Notes: generated from the letters alone by a model not told the origin. A DNA stretch of 64,000 bases from Nanobdellota archaeon (GCA_021818905.1 JAKASS010000002.1:24142-88141), one strand, 5' to 3'. Shown: positions 17,101-63,716, counted from the first letter of the stretch. A program made the numbers and translations.

Positions 17101-18603
17101 ATAGGAGGTGATCCAGCCGCACGTTCCCGTACGGCTACCTTGTGGCGACTTAACCCTACTCACTGAGTCTAGATTCGGTTATCATTAATACGACAGTCTC
17201 ATCTAGATCCAACTTGTCTGGTTTGACGGGCAGTGTGTGCAAGGAGCAGGAAAGTATTCACCGCGCTTTGTTGAAACGCGGTTACTACGGATTCCGCCTT
17301 CACGAGGCCGAGTTACAGACCTCGATTCGAACTAGGATAAAGATTGTAGGATTGGCTTCTCCTTTCGGAGTTGCTTCCCATTGCCTTTACCATTGCAATT
17401 CGCGTGTAGCCCAGAAGATTAGGGTCATACTGACCTACCGTCGCCCTCACCTTCCTCTTTCTTTCGAAAGCAGTCTCCATATTTTGCTCGTTCATAACGG
17501 ATTACACGTTAGCAAATATGGAAGAGGGTCTTGTTAGTTACCCGACTTAACGGGACGTCTCAAGATACTAACTGATGATGGCCATGCAACACCTTTCAGC
17601 GTATTAGGCAAGTTCTTCAGACTGGCCTTCATCTTGCTGTCGCTTCTGGTAAGATTCCCGGAGTTGAATCCAATTGAACCGCAAATTTCACCCGTTTTTG
17701 TGCTCCCCCGCCAATTCCTTTAAGTTTCGACCTTGCGATTATACTCCCCAAGTGGCTTACTTAACGCCTTCGCTGTCACACTGCATTTCCTCAAGGAAAT
17801 GCAACGTATAGTAAGCAGCGTTTACTGCTAGGGCTACCCGGGTATCTAATCCGGTTCGTTCTCCTAGCCTTCGTCCCTCACCGTCAGGTCCGTTCTGGGA
17901 ATGCGCCTTCGCCACTGGTGGTCTTTTCCAGATTAAAGGATTTTACTCCTACCTAGAAAGTTCCCATTCCCCCTCCCGGCCTCTAGTCTGAAAGTATTCA
18001 TACCATATTGTCCAGTTAAACTGAACGATTTAAGCACGAACTATTCAAACCAGCTACGAACGCTTTAGACTCAATAATAATGGTCACCACTCGAGCGACG
18101 GGTATTACCGCGGCTGCTGGCACCCGTTTGCCCCGCTCTTATTCGCCATGCCATTTAAAAACATGGCAAAAGTTCCTTCTTAAAAAGAAGAAACACTTGG
18201 GATCCCCCTATCACACTTTCGTGCATTGTAGAGTTTTCGGGACTGCTGCACACCGTAGCGCTAGGGTCCTTGTCTCAGTACCCTTCTTGGGGAAACCACT
18301 TCCATGGCCCCTACTGATTTTAGATTTGGTGAGCCGTTACCTCACCAACAGTCTAATCAGGCATAGACCGATCGTAATGCGATTTATAACGGTAATAGTC
18401 ATAAACCTTTCACAATAAAATCGTTTCAGAAACTATTGCTATGGAGTATTAACCTCAGTTTCCCGAAGATATTCTCCTCATTACGGTACGTTATCTATGT
18501 GTTGCCTAAGCCGTACGCTATCAACCCTTACCGGGCAGATAAAACTTGCATGTCTCATTCGAATCCCAATAGCAGTGACCTCCAGCAGGATCAACTGGAA
18601 TTG
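17101..18603 (-). rRNA. rrs: 16S ribosomal RNA (unlinked, no adjacent 23S/5S)
   Basis: Minus strand: 5' end ATTCCAGTTGATCCTGCTGGAGG (revcomp of 18581..18603), 515-region GTGCCAGCAGCCGCGG (18105..18122 revcomp), 1390-region, 3' end GGATCACCTCCT (revcomp of 17103..17114). Confidence 0.9.
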
Positions 18604-23412: not shown

Positions 23413-23525
23413 TGGGGTCAGCCGGATTTGAACCGACATCAAACGCTTTCTTCTAATCATCCTTTAAAAGTCATTTTTCCAGACGAGCTGGAGGCGTTTG
23501 TTCTACCTGGTTAAACTATGACCCC
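23413..23525 (-). tRNA. tRNA-Trp (anticodon CCA) with ~40-nt intron in anticodon loop
   Basis: Minus strand: acceptor GGGGTCA/TGACCCC, D-arm, anticodon stem AACGC/GCGTT with loop CTCCAG|intron|A, T-arm GTCGG-TTCAAAT-CCGGC; total 113 nt. Confidence 0.7.
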
Positions 23526-45862: not shown

Positions 45863-46805
45863 GGGCACTGTTACCAAATACGGTTGGTGAATGTTAATTA
45901 CATCGGCTGCCATCTTTATTTAAGGTAAAAAATGGAAAACCGATGTAATTATTGTAAAAGTAGCAGCGCAGCCTTAAATGGTTTTAGAAAGACGAAAAAC
46001 AGGGGAAACATACAGCGATACCGCTGTATGTCCTGCGGTAAGACGTTCGTGGAAAACGGCGGTTTCAGGTGGAAACACCATGCGAAACGCACCATAATCG
46101 GCAGTATTCACCTCCATCTGATAGGATCGTCGCTTAGGGACGCTGCAAAGTTCCTTTCCGTGTCCGTTGATTCCGTATTCAGGTGGTTTCTTGAATACGG
46201 AAAAATGATCATAGGATACGTAAAGGACATGAAGCCTTTCAGGACGGAAAGGCTTCACATGGACGAGATGTCCGTAAAGACGCGTGGGAAGTCCTTTTAC
46301 GTATGGGCTTCCATCTGCAGGGAGAGCAGGTTTGCCACGGCTTTTCTCGCTTCCGACAGGACGAAGAAGAACGCCAGACTGCTGATGAAGGAGTCCCCGC
46401 CAGCCATGAACATCACCACGGACGGAGCCTTCGGATACGGATCCGTAATAAAAGACTTAAAAGGCTTGGGGTATCACCACGACCACTATCACCGCTGCGC
46501 TTCCTTCGAGGACAAGAAGGACAATAATCTCATAGAAAGATGGAATAATTCCTATCGTGCTAATACCCACGAGCTTCGCGGGTTCAAGGAGCTTTACACT
46601 GGAGACTTGTTCGTAAGATTGTGGACGTTCTACTATGACTTCATAAGGCCGCATTCTTCCCTCGGCAGGACCCCTGCTGAAGAAGCGGGACTTGTAAGGT
46701 ATCACGAAGGCGATGATTGGTTCGGACGGTGGGAACGATGGGTCGAGAGAGCTTCGCTCTCTTTTTATTTGGCTTATATATCAACCGTATTTAGTAACAG
46801 TGCCC
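45863..46805 (+). mobile_element. IS6-family insertion sequence (~943 bp) with 26-bp imperfect terminal inverted repeats
   Basis: Left IR GGGCACTGTTACCAAATACGGTTGGT (45863..45888) vs reverse complement of right IR (46780..46805) GGGCACTGTTACTAAATACGGTTGAT, 24/26 identical; IR start GGCACTGTT matches IS26/IS6-family IR consensus GGCACTGTTGCAAA; element is markedly GC-richer than flanks. Confidence 0.7.
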
Positions 46806-46981
46806 AGGAATCTGCCAAATCCTTCCTTCGAGGTCTCCGTGTATCCCTCTTTTATTATTTTTCCATGTTCTTCCACCACTACATAGCTCTGCCTCTTTCC
46901 CGTGTTTATCGACACTACCCTCCCTGCCGTCTTTTCCGTTTCTCCCATGTTCCCTTCGCCTCCGAAAGCGACGACCTTTGA
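45932..46981 (+). CDS. tnp: IS6-family DDE transposase with N-terminal zinc ribbon (frame reads through right IR)
   Basis: N-terminal CNYC...CMSC ribbon; DDE region HMDEM ... ITTDGAFGY ... NNLIERWN collinear with IS26 Tnp (DETYIK ... IVTDKA ... NNLIEQDH); no stop codon before right IR so ORF continues 59 codons into flanking DNA. Confidence 0.7.
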   Translation: MENRCNYCKSSSAALNGFRKTKNRGNIQRYRCMSCGKTFVENGGFRWKHHAKRTIIGSIHLHLIGSSLRDAAKFLSVSVDSVFRWFLEYGKMIIGYVKDMKPFRTERLHMDEMSVKTRGKSFYVWASICRESRFATAFLASDRTKKNARLLMKESPPAMNITTDGAFGYGSVIKDLKGLGYHHDHYHRCASFEDKKDNNLIERWNNSYRANTHELRGFKELYTGDLFVRLWTFYYDFIRPHSSLGRTPAEEAGLVRYHEGDDWFGRWERWVERASLSFYLAYISTVFSNSAQESAKSFLRGLRVSLFYYFSMFFHHYIALPLSRVYRHYPPCRLFRFSHVPFASESDDL

Positions 46982-48911: not shown

Positions 48912-49241
48912 ATGCGTACCAAAAAAAGGTATCTGCTGGTCGAAATCAGCGGTATTACTTCCGCAGAAGAATTTGAGAAGGCGGTGCGCTCTACATTGAA
49001 TAACCTGGAACCTCTGATTTCCATAAAGGCGAACCTGCGGATAATAAAAGATTGCTTTTCTAGCACACCGGACAGTATTTTAGGTATATTGAGCGTAGAC
49101 AATTCTTACAAAAATCAAGTGATATTCTTATTATCTTTAATTGGTAAGTTTTATAAATCAAACCTGCTTACCTTAAAAAGTAGTGGTAGTCTAAAAAAGA
49201 TAAAATTGGAGGAAACTAGATATGGAACAAATGCCAAATGA
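48912..49241 (+). CDS. rnp2: RNase P protein component 2 (Pop5/Rpp14)-like
   Basis: 109 aa; RYLLVEI start and position immediately upstream of psmA match the first gene of the archaeal exosome/proteasome superoperon. Confidence 0.5.
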   Translation: MRTKKRYLLVEISGITSAEEFEKAVRSTLNNLEPLISIKANLRIIKDCFSSTPDSILGILSVDNSYKNQVIFLLSLIGKFYKSNLLTLKSSGSLKKIKLEETRYGTNAK

Positions 49242-49932
49242 TTTAATGGGTTATGACCGTGCAATCACGCTCTTCAGCCCAGATGGTAGACTTTTACAAG
49301 TAGAATACGCTCGAAAGACTGTCTCTCAGGGTTCTGCTGCATTGGCTTTGGCCGGCAAGGACTCCATTGTTTTCGTGGCCGATAAAAGACTTCCTGAAGT
49401 GGAAAAACTTATAGTTACAGAAAGCATAGAAAAAATATTTAAAATAGACGAATTTGCTGGCGTTGCGATATCAGGTATGATAGCAGATGGCCGCGCGCTT
49501 ATAGAAAAGGCTCAGTTAGAAGCGCAACAGCACCGCGTCACTTACAACGAACAGGCGGATATGTTACTTCTTATAAAAAAGATCAGTTCTGAAATGCAAG
49601 CTTTCACGCAGTACGGTGGCGCAAGACCTTACGGTGTAAGCATGTTGTTCGGAGGGTTAAGAAATGAAAAGCCGGTCCTATTCATGTTAGAACCAAGCGG
49701 GATATTTTTCCAGTACAAGGCAGTGGCCATAGGCGAAGGTTCACAAGCTATAAACAAGAGCTTGGAAGAAGGATATAAGACAGACATGGATACTGATGCA
49801 TTGATAAAGGTCGCTATAAAAGCCATGAAAGTTGGCGGTATAAAACTACATCCCGACAGATTTGAAATAGTCATCATCAATGCTTCTGGTTTTAGGAGAC
49901 TTGGAAAAGAAGAGATATCAGCATACATCTAA
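49222..49932 (+). CDS. psmA: proteasome subunit alpha
   Basis: 236 aa; N-terminal YDRAITLFSPDGRLLQVEYA signature. Confidence 0.9.
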   Translation: MEQMPNDLMGYDRAITLFSPDGRLLQVEYARKTVSQGSAALALAGKDSIVFVADKRLPEVEKLIVTESIEKIFKIDEFAGVAISGMIADGRALIEKAQLEAQQHRVTYNEQADMLLLIKKISSEMQAFTQYGGARPYGVSMLFGGLRNEKPVLFMLEPSGIFFQYKAVAIGEGSQAINKSLEEGYKTDMDTDALIKVAIKAMKVGGIKLHPDRFEIVIINASGFRRLGKEEISAYI

Positions 49933-49949
49933 GCAATCTCATCAAATAC

Positions 49950-50624
49950 ATGGAAGATAGAGTAATAGCAAGACTTCAGATCGAAGACAAAAGATTCGAG
50001 ATTTTTGTCGACTGTGAAAAGGCGATGGCCATAAAAGAAGGCAAAAACGATGATATAACTTCTGCACTTTTAGTCGACAAGATATTCAAGGATATAAAGA
50101 AGGGTGAAGTCGCTGGCAATCTTGACAAGACTTTTGGCACAGAAGATGTAAACAAAGTAGCTCTAGAGATAATAAAAAGAGGGGAAATCCAGATCAGCAG
50201 TGCGTACAGAGAAAAGCAGACTGTGATGCTAAAGAACAGGATAATAGACAACATAGCTTCCATGGCTATAGATTCTATGACAAACTTACCAATACCAAGA
50301 AAAAGGATAGAACTTGCTATGAATGAAGTGCATCATAATTTTGATTTGAATAAACCAGAGAAAGAACAGACAGAAGATGTCCTTATAAAGCTTAAAAAGA
50401 TCTTACCTATAAAACTAGGGGAATTCTCCTACTTGGCTGAGATACCATTGGCCTACGCAAACGACTCAATGTTATCTTTAAAAAGGTTAGCAGACATTAA
50501 AAGTAATACAAGAAATGACAACGGGATAAGTGTTACTTTCTCGGTAAAAGCTGGAAGTGAAGGAGAGCTTTTAAGTAAATTAAAGAGTGTGACGCATGGC
50601 ACAATAATGCTAAGGAGAATATAG
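49950..50624 (+). CDS. sdo1: ribosome maturation protein SBDS/Sdo1 homolog
   Basis: 224 aa; conserved position between psmA and rrp4; FYSH-like N-terminal region. Confidence 0.65.
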   Translation: MEDRVIARLQIEDKRFEIFVDCEKAMAIKEGKNDDITSALLVDKIFKDIKKGEVAGNLDKTFGTEDVNKVALEIIKRGEIQISSAYREKQTVMLKNRIIDNIASMAIDSMTNLPIPRKRIELAMNEVHHNFDLNKPEKEQTEDVLIKLKKILPIKLGEFSYLAEIPLAYANDSMLSLKRLADIKSNTRNDNGISVTFSVKAGSEGELLSKLKSVTHGTIMLRRI

Positions 50625-50629
50625 AAAAT

Positions 50630-51304
50630 ATGGCACAGCTAAAAAATTATGACATTGTTACCCCTGGCGAATTGCTTTCTGAGGAAGGCGATGGCGGAAA
50701 CGGTACTTATGTCGAAAATGGCAAGACATTCTCAAAATACTTTGGAATGCTACAAGTGAATGAACGGGGGGCAAGCGTAACTCCTCTTACCGGAGTATAC
50801 AAGCCAAGAGAAGGCGATGACGTAATAGGGCAAATAGTAGAGGTTAGCAGCAAATATTGGGTGGTAGACATAAACGCGCCATATTACACTAGACTAGATT
50901 CAAGAGATGTTAATTTCAGGGCCGACATAGACGACCTCGCCCGATATATGCAGATGGGTGATTTGATTTTTGCTAGAGTATTTAGAATATACGCGAACCA
51001 CGCAGCCGATGTTTCGATGAGAGGCACAAAATACGCCAAGTTGCCATCAAAGATGATAACAAAGATAGACCCTATGAAACTCCCTAGACTTATAGGCAAG
51101 GAAGGCGCGATGATAAACTTAATAAAAAATGAAACGCATTGCGAAATCGTAATAGGACAGAACGGGATTATATGGGTAGGCGGCGACAAAGAACAAATGA
51201 ACTTAGCTATTTCGGCTATAAATCTAGTCGAAAGCGAATACCACATTCCTAGACTAATGGAAAAAGTAACGGAGATGTTTGAAAATGTACGAAGAAAGAT
51301 TTGA
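50630..51304 (+). CDS. rrp4: exosome complex RNA-binding subunit Rrp4 (S1 + KH)
   Basis: 224 aa; S1 and KH domain pattern, operon position. Confidence 0.8.
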   Translation: MAQLKNYDIVTPGELLSEEGDGGNGTYVENGKTFSKYFGMLQVNERGASVTPLTGVYKPREGDDVIGQIVEVSSKYWVVDINAPYYTRLDSRDVNFRADIDDLARYMQMGDLIFARVFRIYANHAADVSMRGTKYAKLPSKMITKIDPMKLPRLIGKEGAMINLIKNETHCEIVIGQNGIIWVGGDKEQMNLAISAINLVESEYHIPRLMEKVTEMFENVRRKI

Positions 51305-51986
51305 TAAAAGAGCGTTTGACGAATTGCGGCCAATGGAGGCTGAGACAGGCCTGATAGCTAATGCGAATGGCAGTGCTAGATTTAGAATAGGAAACACGGA
51401 AGCTATCGCAGCTGTGTACGGTCCGCAAGAGGTGAAACCGAAGCACTTTGAAAAGGTTGACCGAGGTATTATAGTTTGTAAATATGATATGATGCCATTT
51501 TCTGTCCCAGACAGGGCCAAACCAGGTTTCGATAGAAGAGATATGGAAATAAGCGATGTAATAACAAACGCACTAAGCCGCGCAATATTATTAAAAGAAT
51601 TTCCAAGGTCTATGATAGACGTGCGCGTTTACGTAAGCCAAGCCGACGCTGGTACCAGGTGTGCAAGCTTGACAGCTGCTTCGATGGCATGCGCAGACGC
51701 TGGCCTTCCTATGAGAGACTTAGTTGCTGCGGTTGCAGCTGGAAAAATCGGCGACAGCGTATGTTTAGATTTAACTAAAGAAGAAGAAGATTTCCACGAA
51801 GGCGGTGCAACGGATGTACCTATTGCATTTTTGCCTTCCAAGAACGAGATTGTGCTCTTGCAACTTGATGGTAAAGTAAGCAGGGAAGATCTTAAGAAAA
51901 TAATAGAGATGGGGAAACTCGGTGCGCACAAAATCTATGAGTTAGAGAAGAAGGCACTGAAAAGGAGGTTTTCAAATGAAAGTTAA
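51279..51986 (+). CDS. rrp41: exosome complex exonuclease Rrp41 (RNase PH domain, catalytic)
   Basis: 235 aa; RNase PH domain pattern incl. DGSARFRIGNTEAIAAVYGP. Confidence 0.85.
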   Translation: MKMYEERFDKRAFDELRPMEAETGLIANANGSARFRIGNTEAIAAVYGPQEVKPKHFEKVDRGIIVCKYDMMPFSVPDRAKPGFDRRDMEISDVITNALSRAILLKEFPRSMIDVRVYVSQADAGTRCASLTAASMACADAGLPMRDLVAAVAAGKIGDSVCLDLTKEEEDFHEGGATDVPIAFLPSKNEIVLLQLDGKVSREDLKKIIEMGKLGAHKIYELEKKALKRRFSNES

Positions 51987-53292
51987 GGTTAGAGGTATTT
52001 ATTCGACTGCAATAACAAAGCTTTTGCTAGACTCTGGCTTTGAAATAACCCAGGCTGCGGATGCGATAAAACAAGCGCTTAATCTGTCTGATGACTCTGC
52101 GCCGGATGTAATGATAGAAGATGTTGACACTAAAGAAGGAATCTACGTTTACGGTTCAGACCCTGGCAAGATAGTAGAAATCCTCAAGAAACACCTGAAA
52201 GAAAGCGTATTCTACAAAGAGGACATAGGTAAAATCTACTGTGGTATAATAAAGAATACTGATCAAAAATCTAAATCTATAGTAATCGCTCTTCCAGATG
52301 ATGAAGAAGGCGTACTAGATTTGAAAAACTTCTGGGGCTACGTAAAACCGGGATCTAAGATATTAGTACAATCAAAAGGCACTTATGACGGCAAGATAAT
52401 GCTTTCTACGCAGCTAAGGATATTCGGAGAGAACGTAATAATAATAAAGAATGGCTTCACAAAAATGAGCAGGGGCATACGTTCACACGAAGACAGAGAC
52501 AAATTAGACGAGATAGCTAAAGGAATGGACCTTAAAGACTGGGGGATATTATGGGTACAGGGCGCAGAAAACAGGGAAGAAGATGTACTTAGACGTGAAC
52601 TAGAATCACTTATGGAAAAAGAAAAAGAAATAACTGAAAAGTTCAACTCTTCCACCGAGCCGGCTACATTGTATGAAGGCATAGATAAATATTTCACGCT
52701 CTTCGGAAAAGAGGACAAAGCGAGATTAGACGATATCCGAAAGAAAGTCATGCCTACTATACCAAAGCACCACATGCTGAAATCTGCGGGATATACAATA
52801 CTTACAGATTTCGCTGAGAACCTAATGGACCGCGCTTCTGATTCTGAAATGTCTCAGAAAGTAGCAGAAACTCTGTTAAGATATGGCCCTATAAAGAACA
52901 AGATGTATAGACTTGCATTTACAAGATTAAACGGGACATCCTATAGGGTAGACGGCATACTTGAGGATGTGGTAGTTGAAAACAATGATGTAAAATCCCT
53001 AAGGCTTACGAACAGAAACGATTGGGGAGAAAAAACTTACATAGTCGAAGCTGGCAAGGATTATGTCGTTGTAAAGCGAGGGGATTCCGAGGACAGAATA
53101 TTAACTCTAAAGCCTGAAATATTTCCTAAGTTTGCGAAGATAACTACATTTGATATAACAGCAAAGAAAGAAAATGGGGCGGTCACCGTATCTAACGATA
53201 ACAGGATAGAAAAACTACGGAAGAAGGGCGAGATAAGCCATGAACTCGAAGAGTCGCTTAAAAAGGCACTTTCGGAGATAAGCAGCATATGA
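51976..53292 (+). CDS. fau-1: FAU-1-like ribonuclease (archaeal RNase E/G-like RNA-binding protein)
   Basis: 438 aa; N-terminus VRGIYSTAITKLLLDSGFEI matches FAU-1 family start (RIRGIYATALTKL...); overlaps rrp41 end and rrp42 start. Confidence 0.55.
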   Translation: MKVKVRGIYSTAITKLLLDSGFEITQAADAIKQALNLSDDSAPDVMIEDVDTKEGIYVYGSDPGKIVEILKKHLKESVFYKEDIGKIYCGIIKNTDQKSKSIVIALPDDEEGVLDLKNFWGYVKPGSKILVQSKGTYDGKIMLSTQLRIFGENVIIIKNGFTKMSRGIRSHEDRDKLDEIAKGMDLKDWGILWVQGAENREEDVLRRELESLMEKEKEITEKFNSSTEPATLYEGIDKYFTLFGKEDKARLDDIRKKVMPTIPKHHMLKSAGYTILTDFAENLMDRASDSEMSQKVAETLLRYGPIKNKMYRLAFTRLNGTSYRVDGILEDVVVENNDVKSLRLTNRNDWGEKTYIVEAGKDYVVVKRGDSEDRILTLKPEIFPKFAKITTFDITAKKENGAVTVSNDNRIEKLRKKGEISHELEESLKKALSEISSI

Positions 53293-54050
53293 GCATTGAA
53301 AACTACGATTACATAAGAGAGATGGCCGAGAAATCTATTAGAGCAGATGGCCGCAAAGAAAACGATAGACGTAATTTGGTGATAAAAACAGGAGTTATAA
53401 ATCACTCCGATGGTTCAGCTTATTTAGAGCTGGGTGGCACTAAAGTACTAGCTGGCGTAAAAATACTTCCCGGCGAGCCGTTCCCGGACAGGGCTGACGA
53501 AGGGGGGCTTATAGTAAATTTCGAGGCTTCTGAATTAGCAAGTAACTACCAGTCAGACAGGATAATGTATTCTGTAGAAGTGGGAAGAGTGACAGACCGC
53601 GGCATAAGAGAGTCAAATTTGATTGACATGAAAAAACTCGTTATAGAGGTCGGAAAGAAAGTTCTTTTCGTTTACATAGACATATTCGCTCTAAATAATG
53701 AAGGAAATCTTTTAGATGCTGCCAACATGGCCGCATTAACCGCACTATTAGATGCTAAGTACAAAGTCGAGGGGAGCGAAGAAAAGATACAGCTACCATT
53801 AAACCACGAGAAACTCTCTATAAGCCACACGTTTGCAAAGATAGGAAATACAATATTATACGATCCAAGTCTGCCAGAAGAAAACCTAGCTGACGCTAGG
53901 CTATCTATCGCAGTAAGCGACAAGGTGAATTCCATGCAAAAAGGAAAAGTCGGCTTTTTTACTCCCGAAGAAGTGGACTATTGCGTTGGCAAGGCATTTG
54001 AACTAAAGCATGAGAATAAGACTTTATTAATGCATCATACTAAAAAATAG
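53289..54050 (+). CDS. rrp42: exosome complex subunit Rrp42 (RNase PH-like, non-catalytic)
   Basis: 253 aa RNase PH-like domain, operon position. Confidence 0.8.
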   Translation: MSIENYDYIREMAEKSIRADGRKENDRRNLVIKTGVINHSDGSAYLELGGTKVLAGVKILPGEPFPDRADEGGLIVNFEASELASNYQSDRIMYSVEVGRVTDRGIRESNLIDMKKLVIEVGKKVLFVYIDIFALNNEGNLLDAANMAALTALLDAKYKVEGSEEKIQLPLNHEKLSISHTFAKIGNTILYDPSLPEENLADARLSIAVSDKVNSMQKGKVGFFTPEEVDYCVGKAFELKHENKTLLMHHTKK

Positions 54051-54052
54051 CT

Positions 54053-54226
54053 ATGGAAGAATACAATAAATTTGAGAGAGCCCGGCTTGTGGGCGCCAGG
54101 GCTTTGCAGCTTGCACTTGGAGCACCAGCTCTTGTAAAAGTCAACAAAAAGGAAGATAGGTACATAGACATCGCAAAACGTGAGCTAGAGAAAGGCGTGC
54201 TACCTATAACAGTAAGAAAAAGTTGA
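54053..54226 (+). CDS. rpoK: DNA-directed RNA polymerase subunit K (Rpo6)
   Basis: 57 aa (below the ORF-track cutoff); MEEYNKFERARLVGARALQLALGAPALV...EKGVLPITV matches RpoK/Rpb6 core (FEKARIIGARALQIAMGAP ... GVIPITV). Confidence 0.7.
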   Translation: MEEYNKFERARLVGARALQLALGAPALVKVNKKEDRYIDIAKRELEKGVLPITVRKS

Positions 54227-54244
54227 TTTTAAATCATCCCTAAA

Positions 54245-55558
54245 ATGGCATTTGACAGTCTAGCGAACAGGCTTAAAGAAGGCATAAAGAAGTTACTTAA
54301 TTCTACAGGAAATGAAAAAGTCGAAGAAGTAATAACAGAGATACGCAAGGCTTTACTCGAAGGCGACGTAGATCCATCCCTCATAGAGAGATTCATACAA
54401 AAAGTAAGAGACGACATAAAATCCAAGAAAGGCAAAGGTCTACTTACGCGTGAAAGAGTGATAGATGTAATATACAATAACCTTGTCGACGTACTTGGAT
54501 CTACAGAAACAAAAATAGACGTTAACACCGTACCTTACAAGATATTACTGGTAGGTCTTTTCGGTTCCGGAAAAACCACCACTGCTGCAAAACTTGCAAA
54601 TTACTATAAGAAACGCGGCTATAGAGTACTACTTTTAGGTCTAGACACCTTCAGACCGGCTGCTTTCGAGCAGCTTACACAACTAAGCAAGCAAATAAAC
54701 GTAAAAATAGCGAGTGCCGGGAAAAACCCAGTAGATATAATAAAAGCCAACGTCGCTTCTTTCAAGAACTATGATATAATAATAGGCGACAGCGCCGGTA
54801 GAGACGCTTTGGACGAGAATCTTGTGAAAGAAATAAAAGGCGTGAACGAAGCCTTCAAACCGAACAATGTTACGCTAGTTATACCTGCCGATCTCGGACA
54901 GAACGCAAGCGTGCAGGTAAAGGCATTTCACGAACTGCTCGGGATAAACAGCATAATCTTAACAAAGACGGACGGTACGGCTAATGGCGGCGGCGCGCTT
55001 ACCGCGGCTTATATCAGCGGTGCAAAGGTTGTATTCATCGGGACTGGAGAGAAAATAAACGAACTAGAAGAATTTGATCCAAAGAAGTTCGTATCTAAAT
55101 TGCTTGGCCTTGAAGGGTTAGAATCATTGTTAAAGAAGGCTGAAGAAGAAAATATACAAGTAAATGAAGAAAGCGTAAAGAAGGTAATAAAAGGTGAATT
55201 TAATCTAATGGATATTTATGACCAATATGCTAGCACAAAGAAGCTGGGACCAATGGATAAACTTGCTAGCCTTATACCCGGTATGCCGACTTCTGGCAAT
55301 ACCAAAGAATTGCTAGAAAAACAAGGCGAGAACATAGGCAAGTTCACTACGATAATGGATTCTATGACAAAACAGGAGCTTGAAGAACCAAATACGATAA
55401 ACTCTGCAAGGATAAAAAGGATAGCAAATGGCAGCGGACAGACCGAAGAACTAGTAAGAGAGCTTCTAGACCAGTATAAGAAGATGAAGACTGTAATGAA
55501 AATGTCAAATAATAAACAGATTTCTGGCCTTATGAGAAGATTTGGTGTAAAGTTATGA
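54245..55558 (+). CDS. srp54: signal recognition particle protein SRP54
   Basis: 437 aa; NG-domain GTPase motifs LLVGLFGSGKTTT, DTFRPAA, TKTDG; Met-rich M-domain. Confidence 0.9.
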   Translation: MAFDSLANRLKEGIKKLLNSTGNEKVEEVITEIRKALLEGDVDPSLIERFIQKVRDDIKSKKGKGLLTRERVIDVIYNNLVDVLGSTETKIDVNTVPYKILLVGLFGSGKTTTAAKLANYYKKRGYRVLLLGLDTFRPAAFEQLTQLSKQINVKIASAGKNPVDIIKANVASFKNYDIIIGDSAGRDALDENLVKEIKGVNEAFKPNNVTLVIPADLGQNASVQVKAFHELLGINSIILTKTDGTANGGGALTAAYISGAKVVFIGTGEKINELEEFDPKKFVSKLLGLEGLESLLKKAEEENIQVNEESVKKVIKGEFNLMDIYDQYASTKKLGPMDKLASLIPGMPTSGNTKELLEKQGENIGKFTTIMDSMTKQELEEPNTINSARIKRIANGSGQTEELVRELLDQYKKMKTVMKMSNNKQISGLMRRFGVKL

Positions 55559-55926: not shown

Positions 55927-56367
55927 TTGGCAAATCACCAAAAGATGTTTTTAACTGTTCTGCCAACAAATGGTATGAACAGAAAATATTCTATAGAGTT
56001 AAAAGAGCAGGCGATAAAACTTGCGGAAAGCGGCAAAACTAAGAGGGAAATAGCCAACACCCTGGATATTTCATATTATACAATCCATAAGATGGTTTAT
56101 GGCCATTGCGTTTCCCGAAAACACTCTCAAGATGTAAAAAACAAGGCAAGGGAACTTATAGAGAAAGGCGTATCAAAAGGTCGTGTAGCTTACGAACTAG
56201 GCATCCCTTTAGGCACGCTGGCGCACTGGGACATTCCGAGTCCAAACCCGCCGAAAAGCTACGGTAAAGAAATCAAGGACAAAGCAGCGCAGATGGTTCT
56301 GTCTGGAATGTCGATATCGGAAACGGCTAAACAATTAGGTACGCTTGTGCATAAGTCCCTTAAATAA
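55927..56367 (+). pseudogene. transposase N-terminal HTH fragment (IS630/IS3-OrfA-like), truncated
   Basis: 146 aa with two helix-turn-helix segments (KTKREIANTLDISYYTIHKMV; SISETAKQLG) and no catalytic domain; located just 3' of tRNA-Arg. Confidence 0.45.
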
Positions 56368-58138: not shown

Positions 58139-59431
58139 ATGCATTACGATTTAAACTATGTCAATGAAAACAAGGAAGAGCTGGTCTCTTCTATAAAGAG
58201 GAGATTTCTTATTCCTCCTATAAAGAACCCTGTTGATAAAATAATAGAATTAAACGAAACTATTAAAAAACTTAGAAAAGACGTAGACGAAATGCGACAT
58301 CAAAGAAATGTCGTAAGCATGAAATTCTCAAAACAAAAGGAAAAAGTTGAATCTAAAGAAATGGAACGAATGAAAATAAGAAAGCTGATGGATGACATAA
58401 AAAACAGAGAAAACGAGATCGCATTAAAAGAAGAAGCAGCAAAAAAATTATTTTTATGGTTACCTAATGTAATAAGCAAAGAAACGCCAGATGGCAAAGA
58501 TGATACTTATAATGTAGAAATAAGAAAGTTCGGAAAAATAGCCAAAAGAAATTTCGAGATTAAAAACCACATAGATTTGGGTGAAAGAAGAGATCTTATA
58601 GATGTTGAAAGCGCTGCAAGGGTAGTTGGTAGTAGGTTCTTTTATCTAAAAGGCCGGTTGGTGCAACTAGCACTGGCTTTAGAGATGTATTCTATCTCAA
58701 AAATCGCGGAGAAAGGATATACCCCTGTTATACCGCCATTTATGCTAAAGAAAGAAGTTTATGGTGGGATAGCACATATGGCTACCTTTGAAGACGCGTT
58801 ATACAAGGTAACTGGATTAGAAGATACAGGCGAAGAAGACAGGTTCCTTATATCGACTACTGAACACCCAATTATAGCCAGATATGCCGATACCAATATC
58901 TCAGAAAAGGACCTGCCGATAAAGTTAGTTGGGGTAAGTCCTGCGTTCAGGAAAGAAGCCGGCGCCCATGGAAAAGATACCAAGGGTATATTCAGGCTAC
59001 ACCAATTCGACCAGACGGAGCAGATAGTGTTTTGCAAGCCGGAAGATTCACGTAAACTGCATGAAGAGATGCTTAGCAATGTCGAAGAGATGTGGAAAGA
59101 GCTTGACGTGCCATATCGAGTAGTAGACTGCTCCACCGGGGACATGGGAATAAGAGACGTACACCAATATGATATCGAAGCCTACCTGTACTCGCAGGAA
59201 AAGTACAGAGAGGTAGGGTCATTCGACGACACCAGCGACTGGATAGCAAGGCGACTAAATATAAGATACGCGAATAACCAAGGAAACAAAAAATACGTCA
59301 ACACCCTGGACGGCACTGGTCTACCGATACAAAGGACTATAATCGCGATAATGGACACTTATCAGGACAAGGACGGCGTAATAAAAGTACCGGAAGTCCT
59401 TGTGAAATATACTGGGTTCAAAGAGATCTAG
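58139..59431 (+). CDS. serS: seryl-tRNA synthetase
   Basis: 430 aa; N-terminal coiled-coil arm, class II aaRS motifs (FRKEAGAHGKDTKGIFRLHQFDQTEQ; GLPIQRTIIAIMDTYQD). Confidence 0.8.
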   Translation: MHYDLNYVNENKEELVSSIKRRFLIPPIKNPVDKIIELNETIKKLRKDVDEMRHQRNVVSMKFSKQKEKVESKEMERMKIRKLMDDIKNRENEIALKEEAAKKLFLWLPNVISKETPDGKDDTYNVEIRKFGKIAKRNFEIKNHIDLGERRDLIDVESAARVVGSRFFYLKGRLVQLALALEMYSISKIAEKGYTPVIPPFMLKKEVYGGIAHMATFEDALYKVTGLEDTGEEDRFLISTTEHPIIARYADTNISEKDLPIKLVGVSPAFRKEAGAHGKDTKGIFRLHQFDQTEQIVFCKPEDSRKLHEEMLSNVEEMWKELDVPYRVVDCSTGDMGIRDVHQYDIEAYLYSQEKYREVGSFDDTSDWIARRLNIRYANNQGNKKYVNTLDGTGLPIQRTIIAIMDTYQDKDGVIKVPEVLVKYTGFKEI

Positions 59432-59517
59432 ATAGTCACCGCCGCTGGGGCAATGAACTTTTAAGTGAACAGATTATTTATTCTAGCGCTACCTATAGTT
59501 ATTACACGGGCAAACTT

Positions 59518-60297
59518 ATGGCAGGCGGGATAGAAAATCTTGTTGGCGATTCTATAACTAGACCTACAAATGCCATAAAGCGACCTTACAAACTCGTAGA
59601 TATAATACAAGAGACGCCGAATGTAAAGACCATGCGATTCAAATCCGAATTGGGGAGGAGATGGACTTTAAGCCGGGACAATTCGTACAGATAGGATATA
59701 GCAGCGATGGCTCCAAAATCGACGTTCAAAGGCCATATTCGATAGGCTCTGCTCCACGTTCTGATGTCATGGATTTTTACATCGAGATGATTAACGGCAA
59801 ACTTACTTCTGTTCTGGACAAGGCTAGCGTGGGGGAGATTTATAACCTAGGCGCGTCAAACGGCAAAAACTTTGAATATTCTCTCAGCCAGAATAAAAAA
59901 ATCGTTGTTCATAGCGGCTGCGACCGGCATCGTACCATTCATATCCATGTTAAGATACATCGAACGAAATCAGATACGAGAGGACATAGTGGTTTTATAC
60001 ACCGTCGGGACAAAAGCTGACATAATAAGGGCCGCTGAGCTAGAAGAATTTAATAAAAAAGGAATAGCAAAAGTCGTTATAACCCTTACACAACCGGCGG
60101 AAAGCCCTGACTGGACGGAAGAGACCGAAAGAATTGATGTGGCCAAGATAAATAAATATGTGCCAGATGTAAAAGAAAGAACGGCTTACCTTTGCGGCTC
60201 AAACCAGTTTAACTCTGCGATGACGGATCTTTTAAAATCGTGCGGCATGCCTGCAGATAAAGATCACATAAAGCACGAGGTGTGGGGCGGCCACTAA
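59518..60297 (+). pseudogene. FNR-like FAD/NAD(P)-binding oxidoreductase (PyrK/ferredoxin-NADP-reductase-like) with two compensating frameshifts
   Basis: Three collinear coding segments in frames F (59518..~59655: MAGGIENLVGDSITRPTNAIKRPYKLVDIIQETPNVKTMRFKSELG), F+2 (59661..~59895: FKPGQFVQ...RPYSIGSAP...) and F again (59872..60297: LFIAAATGIVPF... NAD-binding); switches at G4 (59652..59655) and A7 (59893..59899) runs. Confidence 0.6.
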
Positions 60298-60423
60298 ATT
60301 CAGCGTTAGAGAGTTTTCAACGACCCGAGTAATACCATAGTAATACCTAAAAACTATTTATAATCAGACCAATCTAAGTAATATTTATAAGCTAATAAAT
60401 ATGTTTGATTTTGGGAGGAAATT

Positions 60424-62604
60424 GTGGGCGTGAAAAAATCTTCTAGTCTGGAAACTCTTCTTGTTAAGAGTCCAAAGGTAAAAACTGCGTCGAAAGACGA
60501 CGCTAAATTAAGGCTGGTTTTGATATCCGAACCGGAACTTGCGACTAAGTTGAGCGATTATCAGGCTCTTTATAACGCCGGTCAAGTGATAGAGAAATAC
60601 GACGGCCGAATAGATGCCATAATACTAAACGGGGGGATGGCTCAGGTCCCTAGTAAATACAGCAAGAGGCGCGGGGAGAGATTTGACCTTCTGGAAGATC
60701 GGCTGAAAGAGACTTACGGTGAAAAAATATTCAAAGAAGTCAAAGGCGGCGCTTCCGGAAGCGATTCCATAGACTCCATGCCAGAAGCACTTCGCTTGGC
60801 GAGGGTCCAGATGAGGAATATACATGAACAGGCGAAGAACAAGGGCATACCTATCTATTACATATTCGCAGAGAACGACTACAAGAATGTAAGCGACCTT
60901 ATAACTGTGTTTGACAAGGTAAAAGCATACGTTGATAAGAACCAGGACAAGGAAGAGACGGAAGATGGCTTCCCGGATATGGTAAAGGGTGTTGACCAAA
61001 GCCTTCTCGCGTTCGTACAGAACAGCTACAAAATAAAGGCTTCCCAATGGAAGAACAAGGACAAGGGCGGGATAAAGGACATGGCTTTGAACATGTACAA
61101 ACAGTGGATCGCGTCCATATTCTCCGATAAGGAGAGTGGGGAGGACCAGACGCTTAAAATACTTGATGGACGGGAAGGAAAGGAATCGGCAGACTTAACG
61201 ACCATGAAAAGGTTTGAAAATGACCTAGAAATAAACGGCATCAAGATAAGGGCGATGCACGCGATCAATGGTCTTTACTCCGGAAACAACGAGGCTAAAC
61301 CTACCGAAAGAGGCGGCGTAATGGCGATAGACAACGCAAACAAAGACGCGCTGCACGGGAGATTAGTAGATGTATACATAAGGTCGCACGAATCTGCGAC
61401 GCAATTTACCGCAGTAGATTTCAATTCCAGAGAAAACCCGGTATATTTCATAAACTCGGGCCCTCTACAAAGCCTTGATTCACAGATAAGAAAGCACTCG
61501 AGCTGGAATAAAACTACAAACGCCAAAAGAGCCGACCAAGCCGAAGACAGTGCAATGCTGATATTCTCTATGAGCGCAGATTCTAGAGTCGACCTCCAGC
61601 ATGTCGGACTCAGGGCGCTTAAAGACGGGACCGATATATCCGCCCTTGAAAGAGCCGCTTCTAAAGAATTATACGAGACTGTGCAGATATCCGATGCGCA
61701 TGTAGGCGCGCCGAGCATGACTTCTTCTTACGAACTTATGGAAGCAATACCACTAGAGCTAGCAAAGAGCACGATACCAAAGGAGCACAGGTACCTGTTC
61801 TTCTTGGGAGACATGTTACACGGCGGATCCGACAAAGCATCTTGGACGGATATACTCTGGCCGCAAAGAGGCACTAGAGACGAGCTTCTTAAGAAGCTTA
61901 GGAGCGCGAAGACGGTGGAAGAAAAAGCCAACGTATTGAGAGAGCTTCTTGATGGCGTCGCTACTCCGGACCTGGGAAGACAGGCAAGAGAGGCAGACAA
62001 GGTCCTTATAAGTAAGATAGCAAACTATTTCGATACCGCTTATGTCGTGGACGGAAACCACGTAGAAAAGGCCGCTGGCCACGCAGGTGAAAGCGGTTTC
62101 CTTGGTCCGATACTCGAACACGCCGGCACGAGGGAAGTAAAGTATCCAGACCAGGTTTCATTAAGAAATGAGGACCTTACTTTAGGGCCTTATAATCTAT
62201 TCATGCTGCACAGCCCTGGTTATAGGGGTGGCGTGGATGCCGGCACGGCTTTGGCCTATAAGGTGATAAAAACGGGCAACGACAACGCGCAAATGGTCTT
62301 TGCCGGGGACTGCCACGAAGAACACGCCGTATTTTTCGCAAAGTATAACAATCAGACAGAAAAATGGGACACGTTCCTAGCGATGACTTCCGCGGCTTTA
62401 CAGGATGTTACCAGCTTTGAAAAGAAGATAGTCTCAAAGAACAAGTATACCAGAGGTTTTGAGATGACTTACCTGCCTACAAACCCTGAGATAGGGACAT
62501 CTTACATAAGACACACATTCATACCAGCACAGGCTCTAAGAAAAACTTTGGACAAGAACGGTGGTTCCGAACTGGAAAAGATCGTCAAATTAAGATATTC
62601 TTGA
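60424..62604 (+). CDS. tandem calcineurin-like metallophosphoesterase: degenerate N-terminal MPE-like domain + intact C-terminal MPE domain
   Basis: 726 aa; C-half has canonical MPE motifs ISDAHVG (DxH), FLGDMLHGGSD (GDxxDxG), VDGNHVEK (GNHE), FMLHSP, FAGDCHEEH; N-half has the same motif order with substitutions (LISEPE, ILNGGM, FAENDY, RSHES). Confidence 0.55.
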   Translation: MGVKKSSSLETLLVKSPKVKTASKDDAKLRLVLISEPELATKLSDYQALYNAGQVIEKYDGRIDAIILNGGMAQVPSKYSKRRGERFDLLEDRLKETYGEKIFKEVKGGASGSDSIDSMPEALRLARVQMRNIHEQAKNKGIPIYYIFAENDYKNVSDLITVFDKVKAYVDKNQDKEETEDGFPDMVKGVDQSLLAFVQNSYKIKASQWKNKDKGGIKDMALNMYKQWIASIFSDKESGEDQTLKILDGREGKESADLTTMKRFENDLEINGIKIRAMHAINGLYSGNNEAKPTERGGVMAIDNANKDALHGRLVDVYIRSHESATQFTAVDFNSRENPVYFINSGPLQSLDSQIRKHSSWNKTTNAKRADQAEDSAMLIFSMSADSRVDLQHVGLRALKDGTDISALERAASKELYETVQISDAHVGAPSMTSSYELMEAIPLELAKSTIPKEHRYLFFLGDMLHGGSDKASWTDILWPQRGTRDELLKKLRSAKTVEEKANVLRELLDGVATPDLGRQAREADKVLISKIANYFDTAYVVDGNHVEKAAGHAGESGFLGPILEHAGTREVKYPDQVSLRNEDLTLGPYNLFMLHSPGYRGGVDAGTALAYKVIKTGNDNAQMVFAGDCHEEHAVFFAKYNNQTEKWDTFLAMTSAALQDVTSFEKKIVSKNKYTRGFEMTYLPTNPEIGTSYIRHTFIPAQALRKTLDKNGGSELEKIVKLRYS

Positions 62605-62645
62605 TTTAAGCGCATACATATAAATGTAGGGTTTCTCTAAAGACG

Positions 62646-63716
62646 ATGAAAGCGGGAGAAAAGGAGTCAGAGGCGATAATTGACTTCATAAAAGCCAACG
62701 ATGACTTCTCGATTTTTTACCATCTGGATGGCGATGGCATAACAAGCGCGGCCATACTTGCCCAGGCCATAGAAAAACTCGGCAAAAGATTACATGGCGT
62801 AAGGCCGACTAATTATGAAGACTTTGAAAACGGCATAAATCTATCGGATTTTAGCGACACCATAGTAATCTGCGACTTGCAAGTGCTAGAAAGCTATATA
62901 CCCGAGCTAAAAGCCAAAAATCTTTGCGTGATAGACCACCATGAGGTCATAAATCATGCTGGCATCATCTACATAAACCCAAAAATGTGGGGAGACCTCA
63001 CTTATACCCCGTGTGCCCTATTGACCTATCGATTATTCGAAAAATTCGTGCCGGAATCGGATTGGGTCTCGGCTATCGGGCTTGTAAGTGACGCGGGCGG
63101 AAAAGAAAACGACAAATGGCTCCGCGAAGTCGCTGGAAAATACGGCGTCAAACTAAAAGACGACGAATACCTTTACGACAACGAATTTGGCTTGGTGGCT
63201 TCCATGCTGAATTCTATGACGTTGCAATATGGGCGTGAGGGTGCGGACGAGGCGCTGGGGATCCTGCTTCAGACTAGGTCACTGAACGAATTGCTGGCCA
63301 ACCAGAAGCTGGTCTCTGCCAACAACAACGCAAAGAAAGAGGTATACAGACTAAGGGAAGACTTTGAAAACAAAAAAGAAGCTTATGGCGACCTAATATA
63401 TTTCTTCGATGTGCCTTCCATAAAAAAACGCTATTCTTCGTCGGTGATAACCCCGTTGAGCATGGAAAAAGGTTATTACGGAAAGATCCTGGTGTTTATG
63501 ACCCGGGTAAACAGTGATACGATGCGCGTGAATATAAGGGCAAACGGCCTGGACGTAAAGCTTCCGCACGCTTTGAGGGGGATATTTACGAAAATCAAGG
63601 GCAATGGCGGTGGGCACGACCCTGCGGCCGGCGCTTCGATAAGGCCGCAAGACAAGGATAAATTTAAGACCCTCTTCGCAGAAGAAATAAGAAAACAGCT
63701 TGATAAAAAGCTTTAG
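62646..63716 (+). CDS. DHH-DHHA1 family phosphoesterase (NrnA/RecJ-like)
   Basis: 356 aa; DHH motifs HLDGDG, ICDLQ, VIDHH and DHHA1 GGGH. Confidence 0.7.
   Translation: MKAGEKESEAIIDFIKANDDFSIFYHLDGDGITSAAILAQAIEKLGKRLHGVRPTNYEDFENGINLSDFSDTIVICDLQVLESYIPELKAKNLCVIDHHEVINHAGIIYINPKMWGDLTYTPCALLTYRLFEKFVPESDWVSAIGLVSDAGGKENDKWLREVAGKYGVKLKDDEYLYDNEFGLVASMLNSMTLQYGREGADEALGILLQTRSLNELLANQKLVSANNNAKKEVYRLREDFENKKEAYGDLIYFFDVPSIKKRYSSSVITPLSMEKGYYGKILVFMTRVNSDTMRVNIRANGLDVKLPHALRGIFTKIKGNGGGHDPAAGASIRPQDKDKFKTLFAEEIRKQLDKKL

Follow-up and report, generated by a model that had tools for sequence, protein, structure and literature searches.

The window, the whole stretch of 64,000 nucleotides that was analysed, carries an archaeal SSU rRNA at 17103–18601 and is therefore archaeal. 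The ORF call returned two co-directional ORFs, separated by 41 nt, at the positions given in a preliminary description of this DNA, and that observation as a whole is confirmed. The features of the locus are as follows.

60414..60418, + strand: GGAGG, a putative Shine-Dalgarno-like element by sequence reading, 5 nt before the GTG of the metallophosphoesterase (MPE) gene
60424..62604, + strand: gene for a 726-aa tandem-MPE protein (ORF), GTG start, a DPANN-specific family that lacks annotation
60442..60468, + strand: short conserved motif S-x-L-E-x-L-L-x-K (residues 7–15) in the predicted disordered N-terminal tail
60499..61638, + strand: N-terminal MPE-fold domain (about residues 26–405) with a degenerate metal site
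61639..62604, + strand: C-terminal MPE domain (about residues 406–726) with a complete two-metal site
62605..62645, + strand: spacer of 41 nt, with a TATA-like ATATAAAT at 62618–62625, 20 nt before the DHH start (sequence reading)
62646..63716, + strand: gene for a 356-aa DHH-DHHA1 phosphoesterase, ATG start, compact and RecJ-like (Pfam and profiles)

Related loci occur in MAGs labelled Candidatus Parvarchaeota or Nanoarchaeota, which correspond to Parvarchaeales, an order of the tiny symbiotic DPANN archaea, including Parvarchaeum and Acidifodinimicrobium (PMC10134863). Among the MAGs with the gene pair are DAHXLI01, JAJZNV01, JAKAPK01, JAJYZA01, GCA_021798355 and GCA_049967895.

Architecture and active sites of the 726-residue protein

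Every copy of the large protein in public sources is named “hypothetical protein”. When its single sequence was searched against Pfam, Metallophos aligned with residues 401–726 below threshold (17.3 bits, cut-off 21.5) and the N half had no match, while NCBIfam and PDB sequence searches returned noise only; weak single-sequence matches to HP0268, FGD1 and ABCA3 were also taken as noise. Three relatives (P0018, P0022 and P0026, with 28.3, 23.8 and 22.6 bits) do exceed the Metallophos cut-off, through the C halves of distant members. Nine close homologues, all full-length and about 720 aa long, were found among 5.8 billion clusters, and when 1.84 billion representatives were searched exhaustively with a profile, 33 matches emerged, those of full length having 630–966 aa. 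A 22-sequence alignment was too divergent for pattern scans; the close-family alignment gave zero hits in the metagenome collection and a second alignment gave 3 loci. A defence or phage origin of the MPE protein was ruled out by the lack of PADLOC and PHROGs matches and of viral contigs.

Structure comparison of the predicted model revealed the four-layer beta-sandwich MPE fold, and both halves match MPE folds structurally, so bearing out the proposal that two such domains lie in tandem. No described protein with this arrangement turned up when Pfam, NCBIfam, PDB and full texts were searched, in line with the earlier statement that no characterised relative shares it, and a survey of DP1 and B-subunit homologues lists no tandem-MPE group (PMC7544198).

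The C half carries the ligand motifs of the superfamily (DxH / GD / GNH / H / GxxH; Pfam PF00149 clan). Its metal ligands D424, H426, D463, N545, H546, H596, D629 and H631 are invariant or nearly so in the 22-sequence alignment, which extends to about 20% identity. Apart from the start Met, all invariant columns of this alignment (D424, H426, G428, G462, D463, Q520, G544, H546, E556, H596, D605, H631 and G678) fall in the C half. An apparent loss of catalytic motifs in the orthologues of L013 and L014 was a regex artefact, the motifs being intact in the alignment. The complete set of canonical metal motifs claimed for this domain was thus found, except that two had been misquoted and actually read GDMLHGGSD and GNHVE.

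In the N half, the would-be ligand positions are non-canonical (SEPE, NGG, ENDY, H279 and HES), and the superfamily's metal-ligand motifs are missing where SEPE, NGG and ENDY stand. These positions also drift among family members: the first motif appears as SEPE, SELE, SDME, SDVD or SNxx, the ENDY site as ENDY, GNTDY or GDKDY, and some members have N, D, P or Y in place of H279, and some RGS, NGS or GSM in place of HES. The GNTDY version, one residue off GNHD, looks like a decayed MPE site when read at the sequence level. Such drift, with the invariant columns confined to the other half, agrees with the earlier view that the N-terminal domain is inactive. Its conservation between orthologues is nevertheless close to that of the C half, and we therefore regard it not as a remnant but as a domain with a function. 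One conserved block of the N half reads W209-K-N-x-D-K-x-G-I-K-D.

The two halves have their strand/helix order in common in the predicted model, with two helical insertions in the N domain (about residues 83–140 and 150–232). They show no sequence similarity to each other when their alignments are compared (hhalign probability 0.2%), so that their likeness is one of fold and an origin by internal duplication is unproven; the term “pseudo-dimer” used previously implies a duplication that the sequence does not support and a symmetric packing that is hypothetical. Ahead of both domains, residues 1–24 are modelled with pLDDT<50. In the motif at residues 7–15, L9 is invariant in the close-family alignment and E10, L13 and K15 nearly so, and the motif was found again in distant family members, making it a candidate partner-binding peptide.

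Relation to known metallophosphoesterase systems

DP1, the proofreading small subunit of PolD (PDB 5ihe, 6hms), is the top structural match of each half and also the top sequence-profile match, the latter being marginal (E=0.006) and covering motifs I–II of the C half. The full-length DP1 match differs in identity and aligned length from that of the N half; for this reason, and as the profile match lies on C-half motifs, we take it to represent the C half. DP1 belongs to the PF04042 family, whereas the 726-aa protein has no match to PF04042 or the NCBIfam DP1 model at E<=1, either over its full length or with either half. The protein further differs from DP1 in its pair of tandem MPE domains, where DP1 has a single one, in its last motif (GDxH, as opposed to GHxH in DP1) and in lacking the DP1 N-terminal domain. 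There is no OB-fold domain before its active domain, as the region there has the MPE fold and the secondary-structure map contains none. No DP2-sized ORF or other polymerase was found in the window, and no DP2 in any of the loci.

The B-subunits of Pol delta, alpha and epsilon (PDB 3e0j, 6p1h, 3flo, 5vbn) are eukaryotic and have inactive phosphodiesterase domains. They have no sequence similarity to the 726-aa protein, which they resemble by predicted fold, and their dead domain is joined to an OB fold, whereas here it is joined to a live MPE domain. Mre11 and SbcD have a Rad50/SbcC partner, in contrast to the present family, where no Rad50/SbcC gene was found in the flanks (about 2–10 kb) of any locus examined. 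A capping domain is not recognisable: Pfam Mre11_DNA_bind gives no match, and in the predicted model the MPE core is followed by about 60 residues at the C terminus. Compared with Mre11/SbcD dimers, one “protomer” is dead and covalently linked. The 726-aa protein looks like a nuclease-type MPE and yet lacks a family-level match to both DP1/B-subunits and Mre11/SbcD; it is a new architecture and family within a known superfamily.

The DHH-DHHA1 partner and its linkage to the MPE gene

The downstream protein matches Pfam DHH (33.9 bits) and DHHA1 (36.4 bits), both over cut-off, and among 7 orthologues there is no variation at D28, D30, D77, D97-H98-H99, D149 and G321-G-G-H324, as would be expected for the active enzyme that had been proposed. 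Its best NCBIfam model is RecJ_archaeal (86 bits against a cut-off of 360), with lower scores for GAN (31 against 850) and for NrnA (NF053633; 22.1 against 350, in a C-terminal stretch only); RecJ models outscore NrnA in all orthologues tested. When the orthologue profile was compared to PDB, PfuRecJ (5x4h, 5.8e-14), 7bhi (1.2e-11) and the GAN of T. kodakarensis (4e-10) were followed by the PAP phosphatase 8a8k (7e-8). Archaeal RecJ/GAN/Cdc45 (5x4h, 5ghr; arCOG00427; NF053576, NF053575) is thus the best-scoring group and shares the catalytic motifs, but with 356 aa the protein is about 100 residues shorter than characterised archaeal RecJ/GAN (about 450–500 aa) and reaches neither the NCBIfam equivalog cut-offs nor full-length coverage (about 450–480 aa).

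The canonical RecJ neighbourhood (S15/S3Ae/Pcc1) is absent from the window, where the exosome/proteasome superoperon lies upstream. In L014, S15/S3Ae are about 5 kb away, and at least one genome (L015) has a second DHH paralogue. A distant DHH orthologue (27% identical, L016) adjoins a GINS gene with S3Ae nearby and has no MPE neighbour, a setting which resembles the canonical RecJ/GAN context (PMC3307487). A GINS identity of the small ORFs beside PCNA was dropped, as these had no NCBIfam match.

The DHH gene directly follows the MPE gene, in the same direction, in 13 out of 13 assessable loci, a few of which may be near-duplicates (L001–L007, L011, L013–L015, L017 and L018; L019, which ends at the MPE stop codon, was left out). 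Three of these (L013–L015) were found from the DHH side and then confirmed as MPE family members. The spacers range from 12–69 nt, and most of the 11 that were compared carry a TATA-like element about 20–30 nt ahead of the DHH start, so that DHH may be transcribed from a promoter of its own. Among the pair-bearing loci, SerRS diverges down to about 51%. An N half devoid of the MPE fold and a pair not kept together elsewhere, the outcomes named in the preliminary description as speaking against it, were both not found.

The pair is embedded in a conserved block with the order SerRS, (FNR-like), MPE, DHH, (EF1-beta, aS21), Pth2, NERD/Mrr-fold, PCNA, methyltransferase, SepF, where brackets mark genes that are present only sometimes. 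This long conserved housekeeping synteny rules out a mobile island. The immediate flanks vary, as the FNR-like gene and EF1-beta/aS21 may be present or absent and SerRS is relocated in L005, yet the MPE-DHH junction is unbroken in every assessable locus. We consider the combination of variable flanks and a constant junction a moderate argument for selection on adjacency. Outside this clade the pairing is lost on both sides: not only the distant DHH orthologue beside GINS but also the Pacearchaeota-type MPE homologues (about 20% identity, no DHH neighbour) lack it, and the pairing is hence clade-specific.

Possible functions of the pair and history of the locus

The two proteins probably form a nucleic-acid end-processing pair. 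Its folds, conserved catalytic residues, degenerate N-terminal site, gene linkage and taxonomic range were observed; its substrate, polarity, physical interaction and cellular role are inferred. Of several possible explanations, we tentatively favour (with a probability of roughly 0.4) a lineage-restricted pair of cytoplasmic nucleases of Parvarchaeales-type DPANN, engaged in single-stranded end processing linked to replication or repair. The C-terminal MPE domain would be the catalyst: as a DP1/Mre11/SbcD-type phosphodiesterase with two metals, it is predicted to trim or cut the 3' ends of nucleic acids. The N-terminal domain, devoid of metal ligands, is predicted to be a built-in non-catalytic scaffold or a binder of substrate or partner, comparable to the dead domain of eukaryotic B-subunits or the second protomer of Mre11/SbcD dimers. 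The compact RecJ-type enzyme may contribute a second exonuclease activity, directed at short oligonucleotides or at single-stranded DNA/RNA, and the joint task of the two enzymes would be the processing of single-stranded nucleic-acid ends, with replication or repair as the most likely setting. Such a role is favoured because both domains are DP1/B-subunit-like and the partner is RecJ-like, because PCNA lies in the conserved block and GINS beside the distant DHH orthologue, and because contacts between DP1, GINS and GAN have been described (PMC6741145, PMC9023282).

If this reading is right, the family represents an undescribed architecture within the MPE superfamily, a covalent pair of a dead and a live nuclease-type domain, which is confined to genome-reduced DPANN archaea and genetically locked to a RecJ-type exonuclease. 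Two conserved “hypothetical proteins” would gain a testable function, and the family could also shed light on the handling of DNA/RNA ends, or the recycling of nucleotides, in minimal archaeal cells. As both domains are most similar to DP1/B-subunits, the family could bear on the way in which catalytically dead phosphodiesterase domains became scaffolds in replicative polymerases. A more specific version, which we regard as improbable, derives the MPE protein from DP1/B-subunit stock, with a B-subunit-like dead domain and a live proofreading-type domain, and joins it with the RecJ/Cdc45-type enzyme in an accessory module of the replisome that is specific to DPANN and would be a version of the Thermococcus DP1-GINS-GAN connection. 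If true, the active-to-inactive transition behind eukaryotic polymerase B-subunits would have a living example in this protein.

The previously suggested two-step degradation of nucleic acids is reasonable and has some support from nucleotide-metabolism neighbours in the distant subfamily. These neighbours make nucleotide salvage a serious rival, which we judge to be possible but doubtful: the MPE and then the DHH enzyme would degrade imported or endogenous nucleic acids and oligonucleotides to mononucleotides that feed kinases, in organisms whose own nucleotide biosynthesis is limited. In 3 loci, the Pacearchaeota-type MPE gene is divergently paired with a gene for a 326–335-aa AAA_17 protein, weakly similar to archaeal adenylate kinase, and ThyX, dCMP deaminase, AA_kinase, DeoC and HD genes occur as neighbours. 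Active sites are intact in both window enzymes, a ribonucleotide reductase gene is also present in the window, and DPANN lineages related to the Parvarchaeales-type clade have been described as salvage-reliant (PMC10134863). On the other hand, the Parvarchaeales loci have no nucleotide-metabolism genes around the pair, the proteins nearest in structure and sequence are nucleases of replication/repair and not nucleotidases, no signal peptide or other sign of export was detected, and the kinase-like partner could instead mean polynucleotide end-healing. A mere salvage nuclease set would be a useful annotation without conceptual advance.

It is unlikely that the two genes are functionally unrelated, their adjacency being inherited synteny within one clade. 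The larger block from SerRS through Pth2 and PCNA to SepF is common to all 13 loci, the TATA-like boxes may give the DHH gene its own promoter, distant homologues on both sides have lost the pairing, and the history of the MPE gene is discordant with that of DHH. Against this, the junction stays intact while its immediate flanks change, and does so across the observed range of SerRS divergence.

The preliminary description had also pointed to cyclic oligonucleotides, pAp or c-di-AMP as substrates. We consider it quite unlikely that the pair consists of signalling or small-molecule phosphodiesterases degrading cyclic oligoadenylates, c-di-AMP, pAp or nanoRNA, similar to CpdA/Icc plus NrnA/GdpP. 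Such enzymes do occur in both superfamilies, and the DHH protein is NrnA-sized, with the weak C-terminal NrnA match (22 bits) and the PAP phosphatase match reported above, one relative even being labelled “nanoRNase/pAp phosphatase” by JGI. Nothing found points to cyclic-oligonucleotide or second-messenger substrates, however, and the closest relatives of the two enzymes are not CpdA/Icc or NrnA/GdpP but the polymer nucleases DP1, SbcD/Mre11 and archaeal RecJ/GAN.

That the 726-aa protein is the clade's diverged PolD small subunit, replacing DP1 by a dead B-subunit-like plus a proofreading domain, is very unlikely: DP1 leads its structural and profile matches and inactivated or atypical DP1 is known from archaeal lineages (PMC7544198, PMC12680538), but PF04042, NCBIfam DP1 and OB-fold matches are lacking, DP2 is absent from the window and every locus, and PolD has been reported across DPANN including Parvarchaeota (PMC6355029), so that a canonical DP1 is probably present in the clade.

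A separate observation concerns the history of the locus. By SerRS, the FNR-like protein and DHH, the window is nearest to L006 (84–92%) and far from L003 (51–66%), while this order is reversed for the MPE protein (49% identical to L006, 70% to L003). Judged from these identities, the history of the MPE gene conflicts with that of its flanks. The window has a mean GC3 of 0.38 (sd 0.07), against which its MPE gene stands at 0.53 and its DHH gene at 0.55; the counterparts of both genes in other lineages match their surroundings in GC3. Nucleotide identity to L001 steps from 76–88% to 90–96% at about 58.9 kb, within SerRS, which indicates either that the tract was recombined or that the assembly is chimeric, and leaves the existence of the genes unaffected.

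Discordant histories of the MPE gene and its neighbours

Protein identities between window positions 58139-63716 and the related loci L001-L007, which carry the same MPE-DHH pair, are uneven. Relative to L006, the tandem metallophosphoesterase (MPE) is only 49% identical, while the flanking proteins reach 89% (SerRS), 86% (FNR-like) and 84% (DHH); relative to L003 the order is reversed, with 70% for MPE, 54% for SerRS and 51% for DHH. The N and C halves of the MPE protein behave alike. The MPE gene has a history that is at odds with that of its immediate flanks, and this could be due either to in-situ gene replacement or to strong rate heterogeneity.

A second irregularity is seen in the comparison with L001. 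Nucleotide identity to this locus is 76-88% at 57.9-58.9 kb and rises to 90-96% at 58.9-63.7 kb, the step falling within SerRS at about position 58900. GC3 is 0.53 in the MPE gene and 0.55 in the DHH gene, compared with 0.38 (sd 0.07) on average for the window; the values of the two genes agree with the composition of L001. The identity step, taken together with the L001-like GC3, suggests that about 58900-63700 was either acquired by recombination or joined to the rest by chimeric assembly of the metagenome.

Between SerRS and the MPE gene, ORF and locus comparison identified a further difference:

59518-60297: FNR-like oxidoreductase gene, present as two overlapping ORFs

In related loci this gene is a single ORF of 248-259 aa. 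Compared with L001, the window lacks one nucleotide near 59651 and has an extra one near 59895, and these two indels, which offset each other, produce the split. Either the gene is a pseudogene here or the sequence is in error.

Conserved elements of the MPE protein

60442-60468: short motif L-E-x-(L/I)-L-x-K, residues 7-15 (conservation and predicted disorder)
61048-61098: W209-K-N-x-D213-K-x-G216-I-K-D-x-A221...Y225, residues 209-225 (highest conservation in the dead N half)

The first element lies in the N-terminal tail of the 726-aa protein, which is predicted to be disordered, and is found again even among distant family members; we consider it a candidate partner-binding peptide. The second, the most conserved stretch of the N half, is located in a helical insertion and may form a binding surface.

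Distant MPE and DHH homologues

L008 6914-7894, L009 2444-3424, L010 6852-7859: AAA_17 protein (Pfam) beside a distant MPE homologue
L016 5351-7047: region of a distant DHH orthologue, 27% identical to the window DHH protein
L015 55-1092, minus strand: second, divergent DHH-DHHA1 paralogue, 345 aa

In the Pacearchaeota-type DPANN loci L008, L009 and L010, the gene of the distant MPE homologue always has the same type of divergent partner, encoding a protein of 326-335 aa that scores above the Pfam threshold for AAA_17. This protein bears a weak resemblance to archaeal adenylate kinase, and its P-loop (GISGSGRE) is atypical. Genes for ThyX, dCMP deaminase, AA_kinase and DeoC surround this pair.

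At L016, where an MPE gene is absent, the DHH orthologue divergently adjoins a GINS gene (Gins51_C/Gins23-like), with S3Ae upstream and SRP54 downstream. The L015 paralogue, found in one Parvarchaeales genome, lies upstream of the MPE-DHH pair at a distance of about 5 kb and has archaeal RecJ models as its best matches, as does the DHH protein of the pair; a paralogue of this type was not found in the window.

Other features of the window

45932-46981: IS-type DDE transposase (DDE_Tnp_IS240/rve_3 domain match)
55927-56367: HTH transposase-like ORF
49222-55558: archaeal exosome/proteasome superoperon
23413-23525, minus strand: tRNA match, 113 nt

The DDE transposase has the maximal GC of the window (0.486) and a GC3 of 0.58. 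The superoperon encodes, in order, proteasome alpha, SBDS, Rrp4, two RNase PH proteins and SRP54; a gene for a 438-aa protein with an RNase E/G-family match is inserted between the two RNase PH genes. The tRNA match exceeds the usual length and may contain an intron.
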